A DNA stretch of 22,290 nt from an uncultured archaeon (GTDB lineage: Archaea; Asgardarchaeota; Lokiarchaeia; Helarchaeales; HEL-GB-B). The position numbers and the translations under genes are program-made. The notes beneath the pieces are model-generated. The model made no database searches. It saw nothing but the letters and a program-made list of their open reading frames with translations, and was not told where the DNA came from. Positions 11,348-19,881 of the stretch are shown in pieces. Every line of letters starts with the position of its first letter. Position 1 is the stretch's first letter. The DNA is taken from positions 1 to 22,290 of the forward strand of contig CAZYEE010000025.1 of assembly GCA_964646355.1 (NCBI GenBank). The letters are read 5' to 3'.

Positions 11348-12769
11348 TTAAAAGGGAGATTGCGGTGCTACCATCCTTCTCTTTATTTTATATTTAAATT
11401 TCTGTAGCATTGTCATTTTCGAATTACAAGCCTCATATAATTCATCCAATCCTATAGCATCCCAATATAATGGACATGCACCTTCACATAAATTAAAATA
11501 TTCGCATTTTTTACATATAGGTCTTGCATACTCTTTAGATCTCCAATATAATGCCGATTTATTTGACCAAATCTCCTTGAAATCCTGTTTAAGTAAATTA
11601 CCTATACCTGTTTTGAACGAAGAACAAGGAAGAACATCTCCCGAAGGAGAAACACTTAATAGACCTTGACACGCTGCACAACTTTTTAAATCTAAATTTA
11701 GAGAGATTGGGTGAAAATATTTATAACATAATGGAGAATACCAGATAAATCTGATATTTTTGTCTACAGCATGATAATATACTTCTTTTATATATTTTCC
11801 AATCTCACTATATTTTACCATAACTTTTTCCGTTTCCTTTAAAGAAGAACCCGTATATATAACCATATTCATTGAAAAATATTCCATTTTAAGCTCATCT
11901 TTTAAAAAGTCTACGAGGTTTATTAGGTCATGAAGATTCATTTTATTAATTGTGGTATTTGTGTGGACATTTATTCCCAAAGATTTTAGATTCAAGATCC
12001 CATTAACCGTATCCTCAAACGACCCCTTTTTTCCAGTAATTGCATCATGAATTTTATGATTGCTCCCTTCAAGCGAAATTTGAGCACTATGAAGCCCCGC
12101 TTCGACTAATCTCCTTGAATAGTTATGGTCTTTACATTTGCGCCCATTGGATATTAAATTCACTCTCATTCCAAGTTTTCGAGCATATTTTATATATAAA
12201 GGAAGCTCCTTGACAAGAGTAGGCTCTCCCCCAGTGAAAGAAATACTCGGTACCTTGGCATCCCACCTTATTATGGAAATTATTTTTTTGATTTTATCAG
12301 GCGGTAGTTCTTTAGTTTTTTTATACGGTGAACTATCTGAATAACAAAATACACACTTATTATTACATCGATATGTAAGTGCTATCTCTGATAAGACAGG
12401 ATAAAATAATTTCTTTGATTTGAATGGGATCAATTCAACATTATCATGTTGATAATAAATTGGACAACCAGATACTACCGCCCTTAGATCGGCAATAAAA
12501 TCGAAAATATCTCTTTTTATTTGATCAACAGATATTTGGTATTTAGCATGAATCTCATTAATTACCTCATCATTGGTAGCCCCTGCGAGATATTTTTTTA
12601 AAATTAGAACCCCTAAATCATTAAGATGATGAACTTTCATGGGTCTTAAGATTAGAGTTTTGTCTTCCTCTCTCACATATAAATAATCCTTAATCTTTTG
12701 TATATATTCAGGTATCCACTCAAGATCTATCTCATTATTATTAGTAATTGATTGTTCCATCTCATTCAC
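11348..12769 (-). CDS. Radical SAM/SPASM-domain enzyme with an N-terminal PqqD-like (RiPP recognition element) domain; putative peptide/protein maturase
   Basis: CxxxCxxC is CNNKCVFC (Cys135/139/142, nt 12344-12367). SISFTGGEPTL is the SAM-binding GGE motif. The C-terminal Cys cluster CAACQGLLSVSPSGDVLPCSSF...PICKKCEYFNLCEGACP is typical of SPASM auxiliary Fe-S domains. Residues about 35-100 (LILRPMKVHHLNDLGVLILKKYLAGATNDEVINEIHAKYQISVDQIKRDIFDFIADL) follow the PqqD/RRE winged-helix pattern. Confidence 0.85.
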   Translation of the reverse strand: MNEMEQSITNNNEIDLEWIPEYIQKIKDYLYVREEDKTLILRPMKVHHLNDLGVLILKKYLAGATNDEVINEIHAKYQISVDQIKRDIFDFIADLRAVVSGCPIYYQHDNVELIPFKSKKLFYPVLSEIALTYRCNNKCVFCYSDSSPYKKTKELPPDKIKKIISIIRWDAKVPSISFTGGEPTLVKELPLYIKYARKLGMRVNLISNGRKCKDHNYSRRLVEAGLHSAQISLEGSNHKIHDAITGKKGSFEDTVNGILNLKSLGINVHTNTTINKMNLHDLINLVDFLKDELKMEYFSMNMVIYTGSSLKETEKVMVKYSEIGKYIKEVYYHAVDKNIRFIWYSPLCYKYFHPISLNLDLKSCAACQGLLSVSPSGDVLPCSSFKTGIGNLLKQDFKEIWSNKSALYWRSKEYARPICKKCEYFNLCEGACPLYWDAIGLDELYEACNSKMTMLQKFKYKIKRRMVAPQSPF

Positions 12770-12824
12770 ATTTTAAGATTTTCATTATTTTTTATTCCAA
12801 TATACTTGAAATAATCCAACAAAC

Positions 12825-13883
12825 TCATTTTGCATCCTCAACATGCTCAAAAATATTGTTCATAAGATTCAATGCTTTTTTATAAAGTAAATTTAATTGT
12901 GAAATCGATATTACTGGAACTTCAGTTGTATTACTTGGTATATCATATCTGACCACTACCACCGATTCATTGGGTGAATATGGCGTTTCAAAAATAATGG
13001 GCCATTTAAATCTTGGATATGAAGAAAATAATCTTCTTAATAAAGACTTTTTCTTTTTGGGTTTGTTTTTCGGTAGATATTCATCAACATTCGGAATCTC
13101 TTTTTTATCTAATACTAGAACACAATACGGATATAGTATATCACTAACTGAAATCTGTACTAATAAACATTTAAAACCAACTTTTTCAAGTTTAGGTCTT
13201 AATATAATAATTTTATCAATAGAAAAGACAAAATAATCTCCATATACTCTTATTTTTATTAAAAATCGTAAATCTGATTCCTTATATAAATAATTTTTAT
13301 AAAAATTTATAAGAAAATTAGTATCTTTTGAAAACGAGATCTTTTTCGATAATATACTATAACCCGATATTACTCCAATCGAAATTCCTACTATAAATAT
13401 TATAAATGAGAAAAATGATATCCATCCGATATTAAATACAATGTTAACTCCAAGTTCAAAACATGCCAAAACCATAAAAAGTAATAGAAACGAACCAGTT
13501 ATTATGATCAATATAAAAATTGGTATTTCGATTTTTTCTTTATGCTGGTCTTTACATATTTTACAGATCTCTTCAAATTCACTTATCGATATATTATATT
13601 CCCTTCTAATATTTTTTAATTTTTTAAAATTGAAAAACTTAATTCTTGTAATATTTATTCCCATGTATATTGAAATTCCCAATAAAAATATATACATTAT
13701 AATAAATATTATCAGATTATATGACAAGTAAACCTGAATTATGTTGAATCCTAAAAAGCTAATTAGAAAATACGCTAATCTGATAAATCTTCTTTTAGTT
13801 ACAAATGCTGATAAATCTTTATTTTTCCCGGTTTTTTTTCTTGATTCTAAATTCGTATTTTCAACCTTCAATTTAACCAACAA
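12825..13883 (-). CDS. Hypothetical polytopic membrane protein (middle gene of the ACHx operon)
   Basis: 352-aa ORF with at least 4 strongly hydrophobic helices (YFLISFLGFNIIQVYL, IIFIIMYIFLLGISIYMGI, IFILIIITGSFLLLFMVLACF, ISFFSFIIFIVGISIGVISGY) and a soluble C-terminal part of about 150 aa. The track start is TTG, so the start is uncertain. No family recognised. Confidence 0.6.
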   Translation of the reverse strand: MLVKLKVENTNLESRKKTGKNKDLSAFVTKRRFIRLAYFLISFLGFNIIQVYLSYNLIIFIIMYIFLLGISIYMGINITRIKFFNFKKLKNIRREYNISISEFEEICKICKDQHKEKIEIPIFILIIITGSFLLLFMVLACFELGVNIVFNIGWISFFSFIIFIVGISIGVISGYSILSKKISFSKDTNFLINFYKNYLYKESDLRFLIKIRVYGDYFVFSIDKIIILRPKLEKVGFKCLLVQISVSDILYPYCVLVLDKKEIPNVDEYLPKNKPKKKKSLLRRLFSSYPRFKWPIIFETPYSPNESVVVVRYDIPSNTTEVPVISISQLNLLYKKALNLMNNIFEHVEDAK

Positions 13884-13937
13884 ACTCTATTTATAACCCT
13901 ATAAAATATTGTGATGAAATTAACGATTAAATTCAAA

Positions 13938-15758
13938 TTAATGACCTCCTGAAACACAAGCTCCATGACATGCACCGTGGCAAGCCGCATGACAAGCTGC
14001 ATGACACGCATTATGGCACGCATTATGACATGCATTGTGGCACGCATTATGACACGCCGAATGACATGCGCTTGGAGAAAAATGTACTGGAGATGCTGAA
14101 TAGGCTGTATATGAACGGGAATAATAGAATGGATACCAGATTTTTTCTACACTTTGTAAAGCATATCGATAAGTTAATTCATCATACTCCTCATATCTCT
14201 CCTTCTCCAATTTCTCCTTTAATTCAGGGTCTATTTGTTTTAGATTTTTAATAAAATCCATCAACCAAAAAGGAGGTCTTACACCTTTTAATTCAAGGTT
14301 TTTTAATTTTTCATCATGTTCTTCATCAATATATAACCATAACCACAACCAATTTCCGTTCTCATCGAATTTATTCCAGTATCTATTTGCTCTTTCAATA
14401 TTATCGCTCTCATTTTCGATGCTATTCCATATATCCTGTATTTTAGAACGATAAAATTCTGCAGTTTTCTCAAAATCTGCATCTATAACCTTAATCTGTA
14501 TATTTTCAGCCAGAACCTTAATAACAGATTCAATGCTTTCTTTTGTTATCTTTTTTCCATCTAATAATGAATTCAACAATTTCGTCTCATAATATGGAGG
14601 CTCCTTCAAGTTATAAAGATACAATCTTAAAATGATAGGGTCTTTATCTAATATCTCTATAACCCCTCTTCTATACAGGTCCATTATTATGAGGTTTAAA
14701 ATTTTTACCACGGGCAAATCTAAAAAGAAGGCTGCCTCAATAGGGTCCAAATCTTTTATAATGTTTCCAGGTATTCCCAAGGTTTCTAATTTAATTTTTG
14801 GTTTTTCATACATATATGATTTATTTATAATGGATATAAGTAGTTTTTTAGGTGTTTTTATAGAATTTTCTTTAATAATTTTTTTCCTTTTTACTCGAAC
14901 TATCTTGTCATCTCTATAAACTAAAAATATGGATACAATTATCAATCCTAATCCTATACTCACTGCCATCAATATTAATACATAATACATCGAGACGTCT
15001 GAAAACACATTAGGATTAGTGTAAAATGAGAATTCAAAATGAAAATATGGAGGTGCGTTGTATTTTACCATGTTAACATTCAGATAATGTAGACCGTTTG
15101 ACGGATTTACATAATTATCAGACCAGATGACTTCATCATATGTAGTGGTCAAACTTTCTTCCGTTAGTATTCCGTACCGGTCAAAAAATGCCTGATCGAT
15201 TGTATCCTCTGGTCCAACTATTATCGGAAAAATTACACGAACGGATTCTACTGGAATTTCTTGTGCCCATTGAGTTGGTGCCCAATGAAATACTGCAAGT
15301 GCTCCAGGTCCATTTGGATTATCTATAAAATCAATAATGGGATTTACCGTCTCATAAACAACAATAAAAGTAACAGTACACCCGGCGCTAATTCTTTCAC
15401 CTGTACTGATATCAAACCAAATTAAATTAATATCTGAGGGATCGGGATAATGTCTAATGTTATATACTCTACCATCATTGACATAAATCTTATTTTCATC
15501 TTCCTTAAAAATTCTGGGCTCAGGAATCTTGATTGATATCCCTAGCAAAGAACCGTATGAAATAATCAAACTGATATTGTATCTAACTACCGCAACCCCA
15601 TTACTTTTTAAAATTACTTGAACAACTTGATGATTTAAATAAAACTTTACATCTCTATAATCGGCTCCTATTTTTAGAGCCCTACTCTGGTATACTGGCA
15701 TGAAAATTAGTAGCATAAAAAGTATTAAACATAATGATAGTTTAACATCTTTATTCAT
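13938..15758 (-). CDS. Signal-peptide/single-TM membrane protein with a C-terminal (Ala-Cys-His-x) tandem-repeat tail
   Basis: 606 aa. It has an N-terminal hydrophobic leader (LSLCLILFMLLIFMPVYQS), a domain of about 250 aa, one TM (YYVLILMAVSIGLGLIIVSIFLVY) and a cytoplasmic region of about 290 aa. It ends SPS-ACHS-ACHN-ACHN-ACHN-ACHN-ACHA-ACHA-ACHG-ACHG-ACVS-GGH-stop. The overall layout, including LDPIEAAFFLDLPVVKILNLIIMDLYRRGVIEI after the TM, is reminiscent of DUF2207-type membrane proteins (unverified). Confidence 0.75.
   Translation of the reverse strand: MNKDVKLSLCLILFMLLIFMPVYQSRALKIGADYRDVKFYLNHQVVQVILKSNGVAVVRYNISLIISYGSLLGISIKIPEPRIFKEDENKIYVNDGRVYNIRHYPDPSDINLIWFDISTGERISAGCTVTFIVVYETVNPIIDFIDNPNGPGALAVFHWAPTQWAQEIPVESVRVIFPIIVGPEDTIDQAFFDRYGILTEESLTTTYDEVIWSDNYVNPSNGLHYLNVNMVKYNAPPYFHFEFSFYTNPNVFSDVSMYYVLILMAVSIGLGLIIVSIFLVYRDDKIVRVKRKKIIKENSIKTPKKLLISIINKSYMYEKPKIKLETLGIPGNIIKDLDPIEAAFFLDLPVVKILNLIIMDLYRRGVIEILDKDPIILRLYLYNLKEPPYYETKLLNSLLDGKKITKESIESVIKVLAENIQIKVIDADFEKTAEFYRSKIQDIWNSIENESDNIERANRYWNKFDENGNWLWLWLYIDEEHDEKLKNLELKGVRPPFWLMDFIKNLKQIDPELKEKLEKERYEEYDELTYRYALQSVEKIWYPFYYSRSYTAYSASPVHFSPSACHSACHNACHNACHNACHNACHAACHAACHGACHGACVSGGH
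13941..14069 (-). repeat. 12-nt-period coding tandem repeat encoding (A-C-H-x) x9 plus ACVS-GGH
   Basis: Coding-strand codons read gca tgt cat tcg / gcg tgt cat aat / gcg tgc cac aat / gca tgt cat aat / gcg tgc cat aat / gcg tgt cat gca / gct tgt cat gcg / gct tgc cac ggt / gca tgt cat gga / gct tgt gtt tca / gga ggt cat taa. Confidence 0.9.
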
Positions 15759-16293
15759 AAAATCTATCCATCCATCTCCTTAATTCACCAAACTATCTTT
15801 TTATATTGATCCTTTTGTATGATTTACGTATATTATCAAGTAAACCGCAATGACCCTATTTGAATCAATTATATCGATAGAATCGCATTCTCTTATTGAT
15901 AGTTAATCATACAATGCCCAAATCAATTAAAATATATGGTCTATAGGATTAAAAAATCTTTTTCATATATTCATATGGTTTCCATTTTTTTCATATGACA
16001 ATAAGAATGAAATACTTTCAATAAAAATACAGCTTCAATAGGGTTTTGTGCTTGCGATGAACATGGAAATATACATCACACACAGCTTGTTGAATCTTAA
16101 AGTATATAGGAAATAAAAATAATATTAAAGAGGAATATCATAAATGCTATGTATTTCCATAAAAAAATAGATAATTTACGGATTTAAATCATTGTGCTAT
16201 TGAAATCGCTTCTAAATGGTTTTATCGACATGGTTTTTATGGTATTTTAACTAGATTCCCTTAGTAGTATTTTCTAACTTTATTTCATAAATT

Positions 16294-16785
16294 TTAATCC
16301 ACTGAATAGCCCAACTTCTTAACAAGCTCTCTCCTTTGTTTTTTTTCATCTTCAGTCTCGATTTTATTAACCGCAGTTCCATCCACCGCTCCTATAACAC
16401 ATCTTCCTAAATCCGTCTCACAAACCACTATCTGAACGGGGTTTGCCGTCGCCACATATATATTGCATACCCCTACAACATCCTTAATATTTTTCATCAC
16501 ATTTATTGGAAATGCACCTTCAATAAATATGACAAATATATGACTGGCACCTATTTTTAACGCGTTCTCTGCCGCTAATTTACCTAATCTGTCATCATTC
16601 GCATTGTACCTTACCAACTTTGGCTGCGCCTCGTTCATCGCGACCCCCACTTTTATTCCAGGCACCGCTGTAATTAAACTCATATACAAATCGTCCACTG
16701 TAAATATTGAAAAATTTGCTTGCCCTATTATCACATTATCTTTATCCTCTTTCTCAATATCTATAACTTTTATCTCATTTTTCAA
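16294..16785 (-). CDS. Adenosine-specific-kinase-family (PAE2307-like) protein
   Basis: 163 aa. GQANFSIFTVDDLYMSLITAVPGIKVGVAMNEA...LVRYNANDDRL..LAAENALKIGASHIFVIFIEGAFPINVMKNIKDVVGVCNIYVATANPVQIVVCETDLGRCVIGAVDG...RRELVKKLGY follows, from memory, the conserved pattern of the small archaeal 'adenosine specific kinase' family. Its start overlaps the upstream rSAM gene by 11 nt. Confidence 0.6.
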   Translation of the reverse strand: MKNEIKVIDIEKEDKDNVIIGQANFSIFTVDDLYMSLITAVPGIKVGVAMNEAQPKLVRYNANDDRLGKLAAENALKIGASHIFVIFIEGAFPINVMKNIKDVVGVCNIYVATANPVQIVVCETDLGRCVIGAVDGTAVNKIETEDEKKQRRELVKKLGYSVD

Positions 16786-18268
16786 TCTTTATTCGCTCCT
16801 TTTTTATATATTTCTTTTCAGGTCCCAAAATTCTCTCCAATATTATGGAGGACCTCGTTCTATATACTTTGAAAATCAAATTTTTTAATCTTTTGAAGAC
16901 AAATAACATTAATTTTAATGAAACAAAAAGTAAAAAAATAAATCCTCTCGATTTTAGGATATACTTAACCGATTTGAGCATGTTTCTTCTTTTAAAGGAT
17001 CTATTCTGAGCAAATACAAGCAATTGCTGCAATTTCCTTGGCGATACAGCATGTGTCCTGATGACAGGTCTTCCCACATTATACCGATCCCAATCTCCCG
17101 TTATCAATAGCCCCTCCTCCTTACATTTATAATAGGTCCTCGTTTTCGGAAACGGGGTCAAAATTGAATAAAACAGAAAATCCACATCAAATTGCTCCGC
17201 TCTTATTATATTTTCTACTATCTCGTGTTCCGTAGCATCAAGATCAGCACCCAATATAATATTACCTATGATCACGATGTTGTTCTCATGGAGTATCTTA
17301 ATAGCCTTTAAAATAGTTTCCACATTAAGCTTCTTATTTATATCCTTCAAACCCTTGTCTGAAATGGACTCTATGCCCATAAACACCAGCCAAAAACCCG
17401 CTTCCGCCATCAGCTTTACTACTTCAGGATTTCTCACAATATTATCCGCCCTCACCTGACATATAAAGTGAAAATTCAATCTGCTTTTTATAAGTAACTT
17501 GCACAGATCCTTAACCCTGTTCATGTCCACGGTAAAATTATCATCCACAATTAGAATATCCCTCACTCCACTCATTTTTCTAATTTCATATAATTCACTC
17601 ACTATACTTATCGGACTCCTCGCCCTCCATCTCTTCCTGTAAAACTCGTGAATACAACAAAAATCACATGAATATGGACAGCCCCTCGATGTCTCTATAG
17701 AATCATATGAAATACCCATCATGTTGTAATTTTTATATCTCCTATATTTTCTGTCAGGAAACCTCAATCCATCCAAATCCTTGACCAAAGGGCGGTCCTC
17801 ATTGTGAATTACCTTTCCCTCGGATTTATACGAAACCCCCAAAACACCAGTAAAAGTACCTCTCTTTATCAACTCTCGAAACGTTAACTCGCCCTCACCC
17901 CTCACCACAGCGTCCACATACTCCGAACTCAAGATTTCATCCACTGTTAATGTGGCATGCCAACCCCCTAACACCACATCACACCGATTTCTGGTCGTCT
18001 CTTTAACAAACTTCGCCAAATCCAATACTTGGGAAACCCCCGATGTTAGATTGCAGCTGATACCCACCAAATCTGGTTTGTAGTCCTCTATAAATCTTTT
18101 TATATCCCCAAAATTTAAATTAAAATTACGCGCATCCAAGATCTCAATTCTCGCAAGATCGTCCGCATTTGACTTCAAATATTCCAGTCCAAGCGGGGGC
18201 AACTTAAAATAATCCGTGGCAATTTTACTACTCACATTTGGATATATCAATAAAACCCGTTTCCACAT
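16775..18268 (-). CDS. B12-binding-domain radical SAM protein (class B rSAM) with a hydrophobic C-terminal segment
   Basis: The N-terminal Rossmann-like cobalamin-binding pattern is VLLIYPN...LPPLGLEYL...DLVGISC...VVLGGWHAT. The rSAM core is ETSRGCPYSCDFCC (CxxxCxxC at Cys197/201/204, nt about 17657-17680). The C-terminal GFIFLLFVSLKLMLFVF is a possible membrane anchor. Confidence 0.85.
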   Translation of the reverse strand: MWKRVLLIYPNVSSKIATDYFKLPPLGLEYLKSNADDLARIEILDARNFNLNFGDIKRFIEDYKPDLVGISCNLTSGVSQVLDLAKFVKETTRNRCDVVLGGWHATLTVDEILSSEYVDAVVRGEGELTFRELIKRGTFTGVLGVSYKSEGKVIHNEDRPLVKDLDGLRFPDRKYRRYKNYNMMGISYDSIETSRGCPYSCDFCCIHEFYRKRWRARSPISIVSELYEIRKMSGVRDILIVDDNFTVDMNRVKDLCKLLIKSRLNFHFICQVRADNIVRNPEVVKLMAEAGFWLVFMGIESISDKGLKDINKKLNVETILKAIKILHENNIVIIGNIILGADLDATEHEIVENIIRAEQFDVDFLFYSILTPFPKTRTYYKCKEEGLLITGDWDRYNVGRPVIRTHAVSPRKLQQLLVFAQNRSFKRRNMLKSVKYILKSRGFIFLLFVSLKLMLFVFKRLKNLIFKVYRTRSSIILERILGPEKKYIKKERIKIEK

Positions 18269-18942: not shown

Positions 18943-19881
18943 TCATTTATCACACACCAAATCCTTACCCCAATATTTTATTAATAAACCCAAAATACCT
19001 ATACACACCCCCATCAACACCTCTAATACTACCACAATGCTTATCTCAATATTTATCTCATTGAATATTTCCATCCCGTATTTTAACCCCATCAAAATCA
19101 GACCAATTCTCCCAAACCACCAGCACCTCTCCCCACCACCGTTTAATAATATCCTCACACTTAATAAACAAAGCACAAGCCCCAAAATATAAATAACCTC
19201 CTCCATAAGATAATATACCATCCGAATTATGCCCATACTAAACATGACCCCAAAATAACCATAAACATCCATGTCCAAAATAAAATTTGCTACCCCCATC
19301 AATATATTTAAAATTATAAGACCATATAACCCCGCTAACAAATCATTTATAGCTCCAGAACCACTTATAACTCTTACACTAACCCTTAACTTTAATACCG
19401 CCTTAATACTATTCCATCCACAATACACCAACAACCCAACCCACATTAACACATAAAAACTCCATAATGTTATATAATACAATGACTCCCCAACTCCTAA
19501 TAAATTCCATAACTGACCACCACCCTCCACCACACCCCATATATACCCCAAATACGTATACGCACTCGCATCTCCTAAATACCCAAATATTAAACATAAC
19601 CAGAAAAATCCACTCAAATCCCCCGTAATTCGCCTCCTACCATATATATACAAAGCCAAAATAATTAACATCAACCCATAAACCAGGTTCAATATCACAA
19701 CCGTATCATTCGCCGTCCAAGCACCCCACCCAAACTGCACCATCCCATTATACAAATTGGATAACGGCGTTGCAAAATTAAATACTTGGATTAAACCCCT
19801 CAATACCAATACAAATGAAATAAAAAAAAATGAGATGTTTATATATGCACTCTTCGAATTTACCTTATTCTGGGATCGCAA
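18943..19881 (-). CDS. Hypothetical polytopic membrane protein (about 8 TM), rich in Gly/Trp/Tyr
   Basis: 312-aa ORF that is hydrophobic throughout. Its start overlaps the MaoC gene stop by 17 nt. The coding strand is markedly G-rich and C-poor (the + strand reads ccaccctccaccacacccc). No family recognised. Confidence 0.6.
   Translation of the reverse strand: MRSQNKVNSKSAYINISFFFISFVLVLRGLIQVFNFATPLSNLYNGMVQFGWGAWTANDTVVILNLVYGLMLIILALYIYGRRRITGDLSGFFWLCLIFGYLGDASAYTYLGYIWGVVEGGGQLWNLLGVGESLYYITLWSFYVLMWVGLLVYCGWNSIKAVLKLRVSVRVISGSGAINDLLAGLYGLIILNILMGVANFILDMDVYGYFGVMFSMGIIRMVYYLMEEVIYILGLVLCLLSVRILLNGGGERCWWFGRIGLILMGLKYGMEIFNEINIEISIVVVLEVLMGVCIGILGLLIKYWGKDLVCDK

Follow-up and report, generated by a model that had tools for sequence, protein, structure and literature searches.

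The closest described counterparts of the locus analyzed here are radical-SAM enzymes that are paired with cysteine-containing peptides or proteins. In the ACGX system and in TIGR04117 (Cys-Xaa-Xaa-Xaa repeat radical-SAM target), both defined by bioinformatics only, period-4 Cys repeats with Ala before Cys are coupled with a dedicated radical-SAM/SPASM enzyme; TIGR04117 describes a peptide of ~98 aa, and the ACGX repeat is likewise carried by a short peptide. The maturases of sactipeptides and ranthipeptides, such as CteB, SkfB, the SCIFF maturase and PapB, combine a recognition element, a CX3CX2C core and SPASM clusters, and act on Cys-rich substrates in the form of short leader-core peptides destined for release and export; in the case of PapB and freyrasin, the substrate contains regularly spaced Cys motifs. 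QhpD forms several intra-protein Cys thioether bridges, and in both QhpD/QhpC and anSME (structures 4k36-4k39; an enzyme without a recognition element), the product remains within a functional protein, in these cases a soluble enzyme subunit modified at one to a few sites. DUF2207/TIGR04222 represent membrane proteins in which an extracytoplasmic N-terminal beta-rich domain and a membrane span precede a C-terminal tail of low complexity; the function of DUF2207 proteins is unknown (PMC10457818).

The stretch of DNA analyzed here (22,290 nt, hereinafter the window) comes from a Helarchaeota (Asgard) genome and contains three co-directional genes on the minus strand that extend from 15758 to 13938 (606 aa, ATG start), from 13883 to 12825 (352 aa, TTG start) and from 12769 to 11348 (473 aa, GTG start), with spacers of 54 and 55 nt, exactly as in the original prediction. 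In the NCBI annotation, the product of the last gene (P0002) is 470 aa long and starts 3 codons later, which makes the second spacer 64 nt. The same trio is also present in relatives, and no terminator-like site was found between the three genes; together with the tight spacing, these features argue in silico against independent transcription. The spacers (54 and 55 nt in the window, often below 100 nt in other loci) leave no room for a hidden additional small substrate gene. Upstream of the first gene, an AT-rich non-coding region of 535 nt (15759..16293, minus strand), presumed to be the promoter region of the three-gene unit, contains no ORF of 60 aa or longer on either strand and has no Rfam match; nor was a homolog found there of the ~130-aa accessory protein encoded in other loci.

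The first gene (13938..15758, minus strand) encodes a tail-bearing membrane protein, denoted BIG, which was characterized by hydropathy, an AlphaFold model and comparison of 154 family representatives. Hydropathy reveals a hydrophobic N-terminal segment (residues 5-23), a signal or anchor helix, and a single membrane helix (residues 262-280) followed by 16 Lys/Arg within 59 residues, from which a cytoplasmic location of the tail is predicted. This topology agrees with the arrangement that had been proposed, with a leader, an outside domain, one membrane span and an inside C-terminus. The protein consists of an extracytoplasmic beta-sandwich (~38-247) similar to the N-terminal domain of DUF2207, a cytoplasmic region (~339-520) that comprises a winged-helix-like and a helical domain, and the Cys/His tail; the model has an overall pLDDT of 78 and a low-confidence tail (pLDDT <50). 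Foldseek matches include ribophorin I/Ost1 and the N-terminal domain of M1 aminopeptidases. The protein was tentatively assigned to a DUF2207-like family, in which 12 of 64 relatives match the DUF2207 N-terminal domain (PF09972) at E <=0.01 (best E 9.4e-8); relative P0124 scores 24.1 against a gathering score of 24.4, and one relative weakly matches TIGR04222. The window protein itself matches neither TIGR04222 nor PF09972 (no match to the latter at E <=0.1), and neither for this protein nor for the 352-aa one is the cut-off of any Pfam or NCBIfam model attained.

The tail (residues 564-606; 13941..14069, minus strand) reads ACHS-ACHN-ACHN-ACHN-ACHN-ACHA-ACHA-ACHG-ACHG-ACVS-GGH, that is, nine perfect A-C-H-x units followed by ACVSGGH, precisely as had been described. 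Within the family, conservation is highest in the tail, which accounts for 17 of the 26 invariant columns of the family alignment (A1). In the DNA, Ala is encoded by GCA, GCG and GCT, Cys by TGT and TGC, and His by CAT and CAC, and Tandem Repeats Finder detects only 74-90% matches rather than a clean tandem repeat; thus, the periodicity is maintained at the protein level and not by replication slippage. In a set of 77 distinct tails, 722 of 772 Cys residues follow an Ala (94% of the units), the residue after Cys is His (559) or Val (183), and 594 of 734 Cys-to-Cys spacings equal 4; the median numbers per tail are 11 for Cys and 8 for Cys-His pairs, and the family consensus unit is A-C-H-S. The recurrence of the same tail in these 77 homologs excludes a chance origin. 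The tail is nearly identical in about 20 Thorarchaeota species despite differing flanks, its irregularities (ACV-HD, ACVC-HS) are kept across phyla, its length is defined, and its end, ACVSGG.[H/R], is conserved.

According to Pfam, AlphaFold and Foldseek, the product of the third gene (11348..12769, minus strand) is a radical-SAM enzyme that also contains a SPASM domain and, at its N-terminus, a recognition element of the PqqD type (RRE). Radical_SAM (PF04055), SPASM (PF13186, residues 364-423) and PqqD (PF05402, residues 40-97) score 97.7, 40.3 and 27.5 bits against cut-offs of 29.5, 21.5 and 23.4, respectively. The CX3CX2C motif CNNKCVFC (C135, C139, C142; 12344..12367, minus strand), the predicted site of the radical-SAM [4Fe-4S] cluster, is invariant in the alignment of 47 orthologs (A5), and the protein also carries FTGGEP. 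In the SPASM region (11471..11722, minus strand), which can be aligned with the SPASM motifs of anSME, TigE, SuiB and CteB, the putative auxiliary-cluster cysteines C350, C364, C382, C419, C422, C428 and C432 are invariant or nearly so in the same alignment. The RRE (residues ~18-99; 12473..12718, minus strand) is delineated by the PqqD match and by the model (pLDDT 90.7 for the enzyme), in which residues 30-99 form three strands (30-33, 38-41, 45-48) and three helices (51-61, 66-77, 81-99), and R33, D36, I40, P43, N50, L57 and D87 are invariant in the 47 orthologs, which come from several phyla. All the features that the original prediction had read from the sequence, the CxxxCxxC and GGE motifs, the Cys-rich C-terminus and the segment shaped like a recognition element, are confirmed. 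The top Foldseek matches of the model are SkfB, SuiB (over 441 columns), anSME, CteB and PqqE, with EpeE, an epimerase, and TigE among the other structural neighbors; anSME is a top match both in structure and in SPASM sequence. By sequence, the closest PDB match is 7tol, a lipid-modifying radical-SAM tetraether synthase, and this match covers the radical-SAM core only (residues 124-266).

In Pfam and NCBIfam, only generic domain models are matched by the enzyme above their cut-offs: no NCBIfam equivalog cut-off is attained, the best score being that for AhbD (133 bits against 500). The sactipeptide-type models StsB (73 against 625) and SkfB (77 against 300) are likewise not reached, and PqqE (105.8 against 381), MftC (85.5 against 265) and anSME (80.8 against 349) were rejected. 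Membership in the ACGX system, a comparison suggested by the initial reading, was rejected as well: the enzyme scores 89 bits against the cut-off of 400 for TIGR04340, and the ACGX peptide models give no match to the tail at E <=0.1. TIGR04117 matches residues 563-601 only, with 27.3 bits against a cut-off of 50, and relative P0132 scores 18.7 bits against the same cut-off. Weak as it is, this resemblance of the tail to a curated radical-SAM target model counts in favor of a substrate role. Unlike the ACGX unit, the present unit contains His in place of Gly, and, in contrast to both ACGX and TIGR04117 peptides, the repeat forms part of a large membrane protein. The difference from sactipeptides and ranthipeptides is similar, in that what would be the "core" forms the C-terminal tail of a conserved membrane protein of 500-900 aa. 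In contrast to the few sites in the soluble substrates of QhpD and anSME, the membrane protein carries a periodic tail of ~10 units.

The middle gene (12825..13883, minus strand) encodes a membrane protein with four hydrophobic helices, in which hydropathy places the charged N-terminus, the middle loop and the C-terminal domain inside, in the cytoplasm. Orthologs occupy the same position in three other loci (L001, L002 and L008), and a ~340-aa protein encoded after the enzyme in about 30 bacterial loci is homologous by profile-profile comparison (hhalign probability 95.7%, E 8.9e-9, 276 columns). Hence the description of this product as a polytopic membrane protein stands, with the correction that, judging from these comparisons, it is a conserved third component. 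The accessory genes vary by lineage (c2-type membrane protein, ~130-aa protein, coiled-coil protein, membrane zinc-ribbon protein), so that the function of the module cannot be read from gene context. No conserved protease or exporter was found near the loci.

The system is not restricted to the source organism. In a scan of one genome per species, at least 498 loci with an ACHx-tailed relative were detected, distributed over more than 15 archaeal and bacterial phyla, including Asgard, Korarchaeota, Thermoproteota, Elusimicrobia, Chloroflexota, Planctomycetota and others. Among the best 80 of these at least 498 loci, 73 encode an ortholog of the enzyme (36-69% identity, E <1e-90), usually directly downstream of the tail gene and mostly 10-100 nt away. 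Six of the seven loci lacking the enzyme are cut by contig ends; the remaining one (L067, Chloroflexaceae) contains no radical-SAM gene within 10 kb of the tailed protein, and in several Chloroflexota loci, the enzyme is located 2-7 kb from it. In the reverse direction, a tailed protein adjoins the enzyme in all 7 informative look-ups (P0003, P0004, P0007, P0012, P0100, P0094 and P0118), which span Helarchaeota, Promethearchaeota, Thorarchaeota, Chloroflexota, Korarchaeota and an untyped metagenome contig (P0118). The conserved neighborhood of the enzyme and ACHx-tailed proteins is thus apparent from both sides.

A sister family consists of relatives with a (Cys-Ala)n tail that are paired with a distinct radical-SAM clade. 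The enzyme clade matches the tail type in 116 of 116 cases (the nearest neighbor belongs to the same class), with a median identity of 32.5% between the classes and of 44% and 55% within them. Because the enzyme clade follows the tail type, the alternative initially considered, a metal-binding tail next to an unrelated radical-SAM gene, is very unlikely with respect to the unrelated gene. No paper describing this pairing was found. DUF2207 proteins are not known to be associated with radical-SAM enzymes, and no paper mentions the two together; the pairing of tail and enzyme, which recurs in hundreds of uncultured archaea and bacteria, apparently represents a widespread, previously undescribed protein-modification system.

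From these comparisons, we infer that the Cys/His tail is the substrate of the enzyme. The three genes probably form a module that modifies the tail of a membrane protein in place, post-translationally, and comparative genomics strongly supports such an interpretation of the tail and the enzyme. Under this scenario, the 606-aa protein would insert into the membrane with the beta-sandwich outside and with the winged-helix-like and helical domains and the (A-C-H-x)9-ACVSGGH tail in the cytoplasm, where the tail would be accessible to an oxygen-sensitive Fe-S enzyme. The enzyme would dock via its N-terminal recognition element on the C-terminal region of the 606-aa protein, and 5'-deoxyadenosyl radical chemistry, with the auxiliary Fe-S clusters, would modify the A-C-H-x units in succession. 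The conserved 352-aa four-helix protein would act as a partner, probably either as a scaffold or as a client of the mature tail.

As for the bond, the leading guess, by analogy with the sactipeptide, ranthipeptide and QhpD enzymes only, is a sulfur-to-carbon (thioether) cross-link from each Cys to a nearby residue. With such links, the tail would become a rigid ladder built of small rings, with its imidazoles presented as an array. We would guess that a tail ringed in this way might bind metal or be redox-active at the inner side of the membrane. Against thioethers, the structural neighbors of the enzyme include one that converts Cys to formylglycine (anSME), an epimerase (EpeE), and enzymes that form C-C bonds (SuiB, PqqE, TigE). 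A bolder proposal, which we consider unlikely albeit worth stating, is a bond new to radical-SAM enzymes, either a Cys-His sulfur-to-imidazole, thiohistidine-like bond or a Cys-Ala lanthionine made without dehydration, that would be repeated about 10 times to yield a protein-derived cofactor on the cytoplasmic tail, active in metal binding or redox chemistry; the protein would then sense or transduce something across the membrane in anaerobes, archaeal and bacterial alike.

The strongest competing explanation, an improbable one in our assessment, is that the tail is unmodified and binds metal or Fe-S clusters or transfers electrons, with the enzyme acting as a partner and not as a modifier; for example, metal, sulfur or electrons could pass from the tail to the enzyme, or the membrane protein could serve as an anchor for the enzyme, whose target would be a lipid or a small molecule. 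The abundance of Cys and Cys-His pairs, a classic metal-binding composition, the Chloroflexaceae protein that lacks an adjacent enzyme gene, and the lipid-modifying activity of 7tol, with its match limited to the core, are compatible with such a role. However, the enzyme possesses a peptide-recognition element in which seven residues do not vary among phyla, its full-length structural neighbors are peptide and protein maturases, and both the prevalence of Ala before Cys and the complete match between enzyme clade and tail type are predicted for an enzyme-substrate pair, whereas a generic metal-binding tail requires neither. Still less probable is a giant precursor from which the modified tail or its units would be cut off to yield a free Cys/His-rich peptide or a small-molecule cofactor, as in the case of PQQ and mycofactocin. 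PqqE and MftC share the architecture of the enzyme, even if both NCBIfam matches are below the cut-off, and many identical units would give many copies of a product, but the absence of a protease or exporter conserved in the neighborhood, the defined length and conserved end of the tail, and the N-terminal ~560 residues, which form a conserved, well-folded multi-domain protein rather than a disposable leader, all speak against this possibility. A slippage or low-complexity artifact combined with coincidental gene adjacency, which has only the repetitiveness of the sequence in its favor, can be dismissed given the use of synonymous codons, the presence of the tail in 77 distinct homologs from more than 15 phyla and the adjacency in 73 of 80 loci.

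If the tail is modified, as we favor, the enzymes described here would constitute a large and phylogenetically very broad radical-SAM modification family, with at least ~500 loci when one genome per species is counted. The substrate would be the tail of a conserved membrane protein and not a secreted peptide, so that RRE-guided radical-SAM chemistry would extend from the precursors of natural products to housekeeping membrane proteins. For uncovering the chemistry, two substrates that are clean, short and repetitive are at hand, one based on the strictly conserved A-C-H-S unit and the other on the (Cys-Ala)n sister family. Such a modification would also provide the first functional handle on DUF2207-like proteins with low-complexity tails.

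The three cassette genes are located on the minus strand and encode a 606-aa tailed membrane protein (15758 to 13938), a 352-aa membrane protein (13883 to 12825) and a 473-aa radical-SAM enzyme (12769 to 11348), with intergenic gaps of 54 and 55 nt; the ORF calls reproduced exactly the positions and spacers of the original prediction. No terminator-like sites were detected between the three genes in a terminator scan, whereas the accompanying sigma-70 promoter scan was set aside as meaningless for an archaeon. The window belongs to a Candidatus Helarchaeota genome, with 100% identity to the database proteins P0001 and P0002. The cassette is surrounded by genes for PAN ATPase, NAC, Roadblock, DnaG and ribosomal protein uS2, and a mobile-element or defence context was rejected as a poor fit because the PAN ATPase, NAC, DnaG and uS2 neighbours are housekeeping genes.

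Upstream of the cassette lies a 535-nt AT-rich stretch (15759-16293), long for this otherwise compact region, in which neither an ORF of at least 60 aa nor an Rfam match was found. The minus-strand genes directly upstream encode a PF04008 'adenosine-specific kinase' protein (16294-16785) and a B12-binding, BchE/HpnR-like radical-SAM enzyme (16775-18268; 204 bits against a cut-off of 481), with the two ORFs overlapping by 11 nt; neither gene is kept beside the system in other loci. A 312-aa polytopic, Gly/Trp/Tyr-rich membrane protein without a Pfam family is encoded at 18943-19881 (minus strand), in a region of extreme GC skew (-0.6 to -0.66 across 18.5-20 kb). A partial Rfam tRNA match at 1919-1976 on the plus strand (34.5 bits, model positions 8-63 of 71) may represent a split, intron-containing or degenerate archaeal tRNA; ARAGORN detected no tRNA in the window.

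At its C-terminus, the 606-aa protein carries nine A-C-H-x units and then ACVSGGH, as originally described (residues 564-606; bases 14069-13941, minus strand). Within these units, Ala, Cys and His are each encoded by more than one synonymous codon, and the DNA repeats detected by Tandem Repeats Finder match at only 74-90%, so that the periodicity is selected at the protein level. Across 77 distinct tails, with a median of 11 Cys per tail, Ala directly precedes Cys in 722 of 772 cases, the residue immediately after Cys is His (559) or Val (183), Ser occupies position Cys+2 in 577 cases, and the Cys-to-Cys spacing is exactly 4 in 594 of 734. The tail accounts for 17 of the 26 invariant columns in the family alignment, has a defined length, ends with ACVSGG.[H/R] or ACVS[S/R]F, and strictly retains lineage-specific irregularities (...ACV-HD-ACHS..., ...ACVC-HS...). 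In about 20 Thorarchaeota species, the tail is identical while the sequence just before it varies. By these measures, the tail behaves like a precisely specified element, not drifting low-complexity sequence.

The association of the tail with the enzyme extends far beyond the window. Three genomes with enzymes 69-86% identical to that of the window (L001, L002 and L008) share the gene order of the window's trio, and their tails end in ...ACHGACHGACVSGGH; enzyme homologues of 46-49% identity from Thorarchaeota and Chloroflexota adjoin a homologous membrane protein of 590-740 aa that ends ...ACHSACHSACHSACVSGGFR or ...ACVSRF. A word-indexed protein search with the 606-aa query or a 17-sequence alignment recovered only the window's own protein; the family, with 154 representatives in an exhaustive HMMER search, was recovered by that search together with DNA-pattern scans. 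The database entry for the 606-aa protein itself (P0001) is a 452-aa 'partial' version that lacks the N-terminus and most of the tail. Protein databases may systematically under-represent Cys-repeat tails or mis-call them.

A scan seeded with the tail pattern ACH[SGD]ACH[SGD]A, with one genome per species, identified at least 498 loci encoding a tailed relative. The best 80 of these come from archaea (Thorarchaeota, Promethearchaeota, Nitrososphaerota/Thermoproteota) and bacteria (Elusimicrobia, Armatimonadota, Acidobacteria, Aminicenantes, Planctomycetota, Chloroflexota, Omnitrophota, Gammaproteobacteria, Bacteroidales, Bacillota, Spirochaetes, WOR-3, Sumerlaeota and Auribacterota). The co-occurrence of enzyme and tail that the original prediction entailed was found in both directions: an enzyme orthologue, usually beginning 10-100 nt past the tail gene, is present in 73 of these 80 loci, and in enzyme-seeded look-ups the tailed protein adjoins the enzyme in all 7 informative cases, one of them from a Korarchaeota genome. 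Six of the seven loci lacking the orthologue are interrupted by contig ends; in L067, no orthologue was found within 10 kb. At Thorarchaeota loci (L003/L005/L016 and others), the genes for the enzyme and the tailed protein are divergently transcribed, and the conserved block also holds an Ala_racemase_N/D-Ser-dehydratase-like gene, a metallophosphoesterase gene and genes for a winged-helix/zinc-ribbon membrane protein and a 408-aa protein of unknown function.

By hydropathy, the 352-aa protein crosses the membrane with four helices and has its C-terminal domain in the cytoplasm. It is homologous to a protein of about 340 aa whose gene follows that of the enzyme at some 30 bacterial loci (hhalign probability 95.7%, E 8.9e-9, 276 columns); the trio is therefore conserved, with differing gene order. 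Accessory genes in other lineages encode a cytoplasmic protein of about 130 aa (25 loci), and a coiled-coil protein of about 400 aa together with a membrane zinc-ribbon protein that is homologous to its counterpart in the (Cys-Ala)n system described below; none of these was found in the window. Apart from generic domains, no system component reached a Pfam or NCBIfam family cut-off.

The enzyme carries the CNNKCVFC and GGE motifs, and the predicted domains were borne out by Pfam scores exceeding the cut-offs for Radical_SAM (97.7 bits), SPASM (40.3) and PqqD (27.5). Its AlphaFold model (pLDDT 90.7) consists of a predicted N-terminal recognition element with the three-strand, three-helix fold, a radical-SAM barrel and a SPASM domain, so that the assignment of the PqqD-type recognition element holds at the levels of both score and modelled fold. 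The best Foldseek matches are maturases of peptides and proteins, namely SkfB, SuiB, anSME, CteB and PqqE. Little or no variation is seen across 47 orthologues at the CX3CX2C cysteines, at seven cysteines of the SPASM domain or at seven residues of the recognition element. The seven conserved cysteines were considered as a sign that the first auxiliary cluster has an open coordination site, a reading dropped as too weak because neither the coordinates nor the CteB alignment was good enough.

The exhaustive HMMER search also brought up a sister family of relatives with (Cys-Ala)n tails, typically ending ...GGCACACACAGCACACAGGGR, of which 245 were found in a metagenome scan. In 59 of the best 80 loci, the gene directly downstream encodes a radical-SAM/SPASM enzyme that carries a recognition element and shares only 29-35% identity with the window enzyme. 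The gene order is small membrane zinc-ribbon protein, tailed protein, active radical-SAM enzyme, paralogue and class I methyltransferase; the second paralogue retains PqqD and lacks CX3CX2C in 26 of 29 cases. None of the 245 relatives reached an NCBIfam cut-off. The metagenome loci L088-L167, for example L130:7571-13045, encode DUF2207-like membrane proteins ending ...CACACACAGCACACAGGGR. When 73 enzymes adjacent to ACHx tails were compared with 43 adjacent to (Cys-Ala)n tails, the nearest-neighbour enzyme belonged to the same tail class in every case (116 of 116), with median identities of 44% and 55% within the classes versus 32.5% between them. Such tracking of tail type by enzyme clade is a classic enzyme-substrate signature, and the interpretation of the tail as the putative substrate of the enzyme is supported. 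It appears unlikely that the tail is a metal-binding element left unmodified while its enzyme partner does something else.

In the AlphaFold model of the 606-aa protein (built on 64 family members; pLDDT 78), a predicted hydrophobic helix at the N-terminus precedes a beta-sandwich (38-247) and a single long membrane helix; a winged-helix-like unit (339-379), a helical domain extending to about 520 and a tail modelled with low confidence come after it. From hydropathy and the 16 Lys/Arg residues that follow the membrane helix, the beta-sandwich is assigned to the exterior and the tail to the cytoplasm, in agreement with the topology originally proposed. The DUF2207 N-terminal domain is matched by 12 of 64 relatives, and the window protein itself shows no match to it. 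In Foldseek searches, the ectodomain is similar to ribophorin I/Ost1 and to the N-terminal domain of M1 aminopeptidases. The best PDB matches of the model come from the eukaryotic oligosaccharyltransferase, namely its ribophorin I/Ost1 subunit (8b6l_O, 6s7t_E, 6c26_1, 8agb_E), and M1 aminopeptidase N-terminal domains are interspersed with these (E about 1e-7 to 1e-5); the 8b6l_O match spans 503 columns, covering the ectodomain, membrane helix and cytoplasmic helices. This model-based likeness is notable for an Asgard genome; the tailed-protein family, however, is mostly bacterial.

A giant precursor from which the tail is cleaved off as a peptide or cofactor is less likely still than an unmodified metal-binding tail, as no conserved protease or exporter was found, and a sequence artefact is already refuted. 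With the tail as substrate, the enzyme would dock on the cytoplasmic C-terminal region via its recognition element and then modify the A-C-H-x units. By analogy with CteB, SkfB, PapB and QhpD, our favoured guess for the chemistry is S-C (thioether) cross-linking; formylglycine formation, epimerisation or a Cys-His link are possible alternatives, kept because structural similarity to anSME, EpeE and C-C bond formers is just as close. The near-invariant Ala before each Cys is a feature that the A-C-H-x repeats share with the (Cys-Ala)n and ACGX repeats, and it hints at the A-C dipeptide as the reactive unit, in which case the conserved His would be what the mature tail displays.

The system appears to work like known recognition-element-guided radical-SAM/SPASM maturases acting on Cys-repeat substrates. 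The earlier comparison with the ACGX system stands as to this general kind and fails as to membership (89 bits against a cut-off of 400). Scores were far below the cut-offs for all curated families tested (ACGX system, TIGR04117, PqqE, MftC, anSME, SkfB, StsB), and no NCBIfam equivalog was reached by the enzyme, the top one being AhbD (133 bits against 500). Literature searches on DUF2207 with radical SAM, ACGX, Cys-Xaa-Xaa-Xaa, Asgard RiPPs and tandem Cys/His repeats found no description within the papers covered; an earlier one may exist among the many subscription papers beyond them. A mention of DUF2207 in a 5-thiohistidine paper concerns an unrelated neighbourhood. The new features are the A-C-H-S repeat unit, a putative substrate that forms the tail of a conserved, large membrane protein of DUF2207-like type in place of a short peptide, the system's own set of membrane partners, and a very wide distribution across both domains. 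Further variants in or near the family, namely ACV-H repeats (…HSACVHDACVHDACV…), C-Y-[DG]-S repeats, N/S-C-H-x repeats in short proteins ending GSRGWR, and ACHM repeats (proteins P0217, P0254, P0221/P0224/P0270 and P0269), suggest a larger superfamily of period-4 Cys tails.
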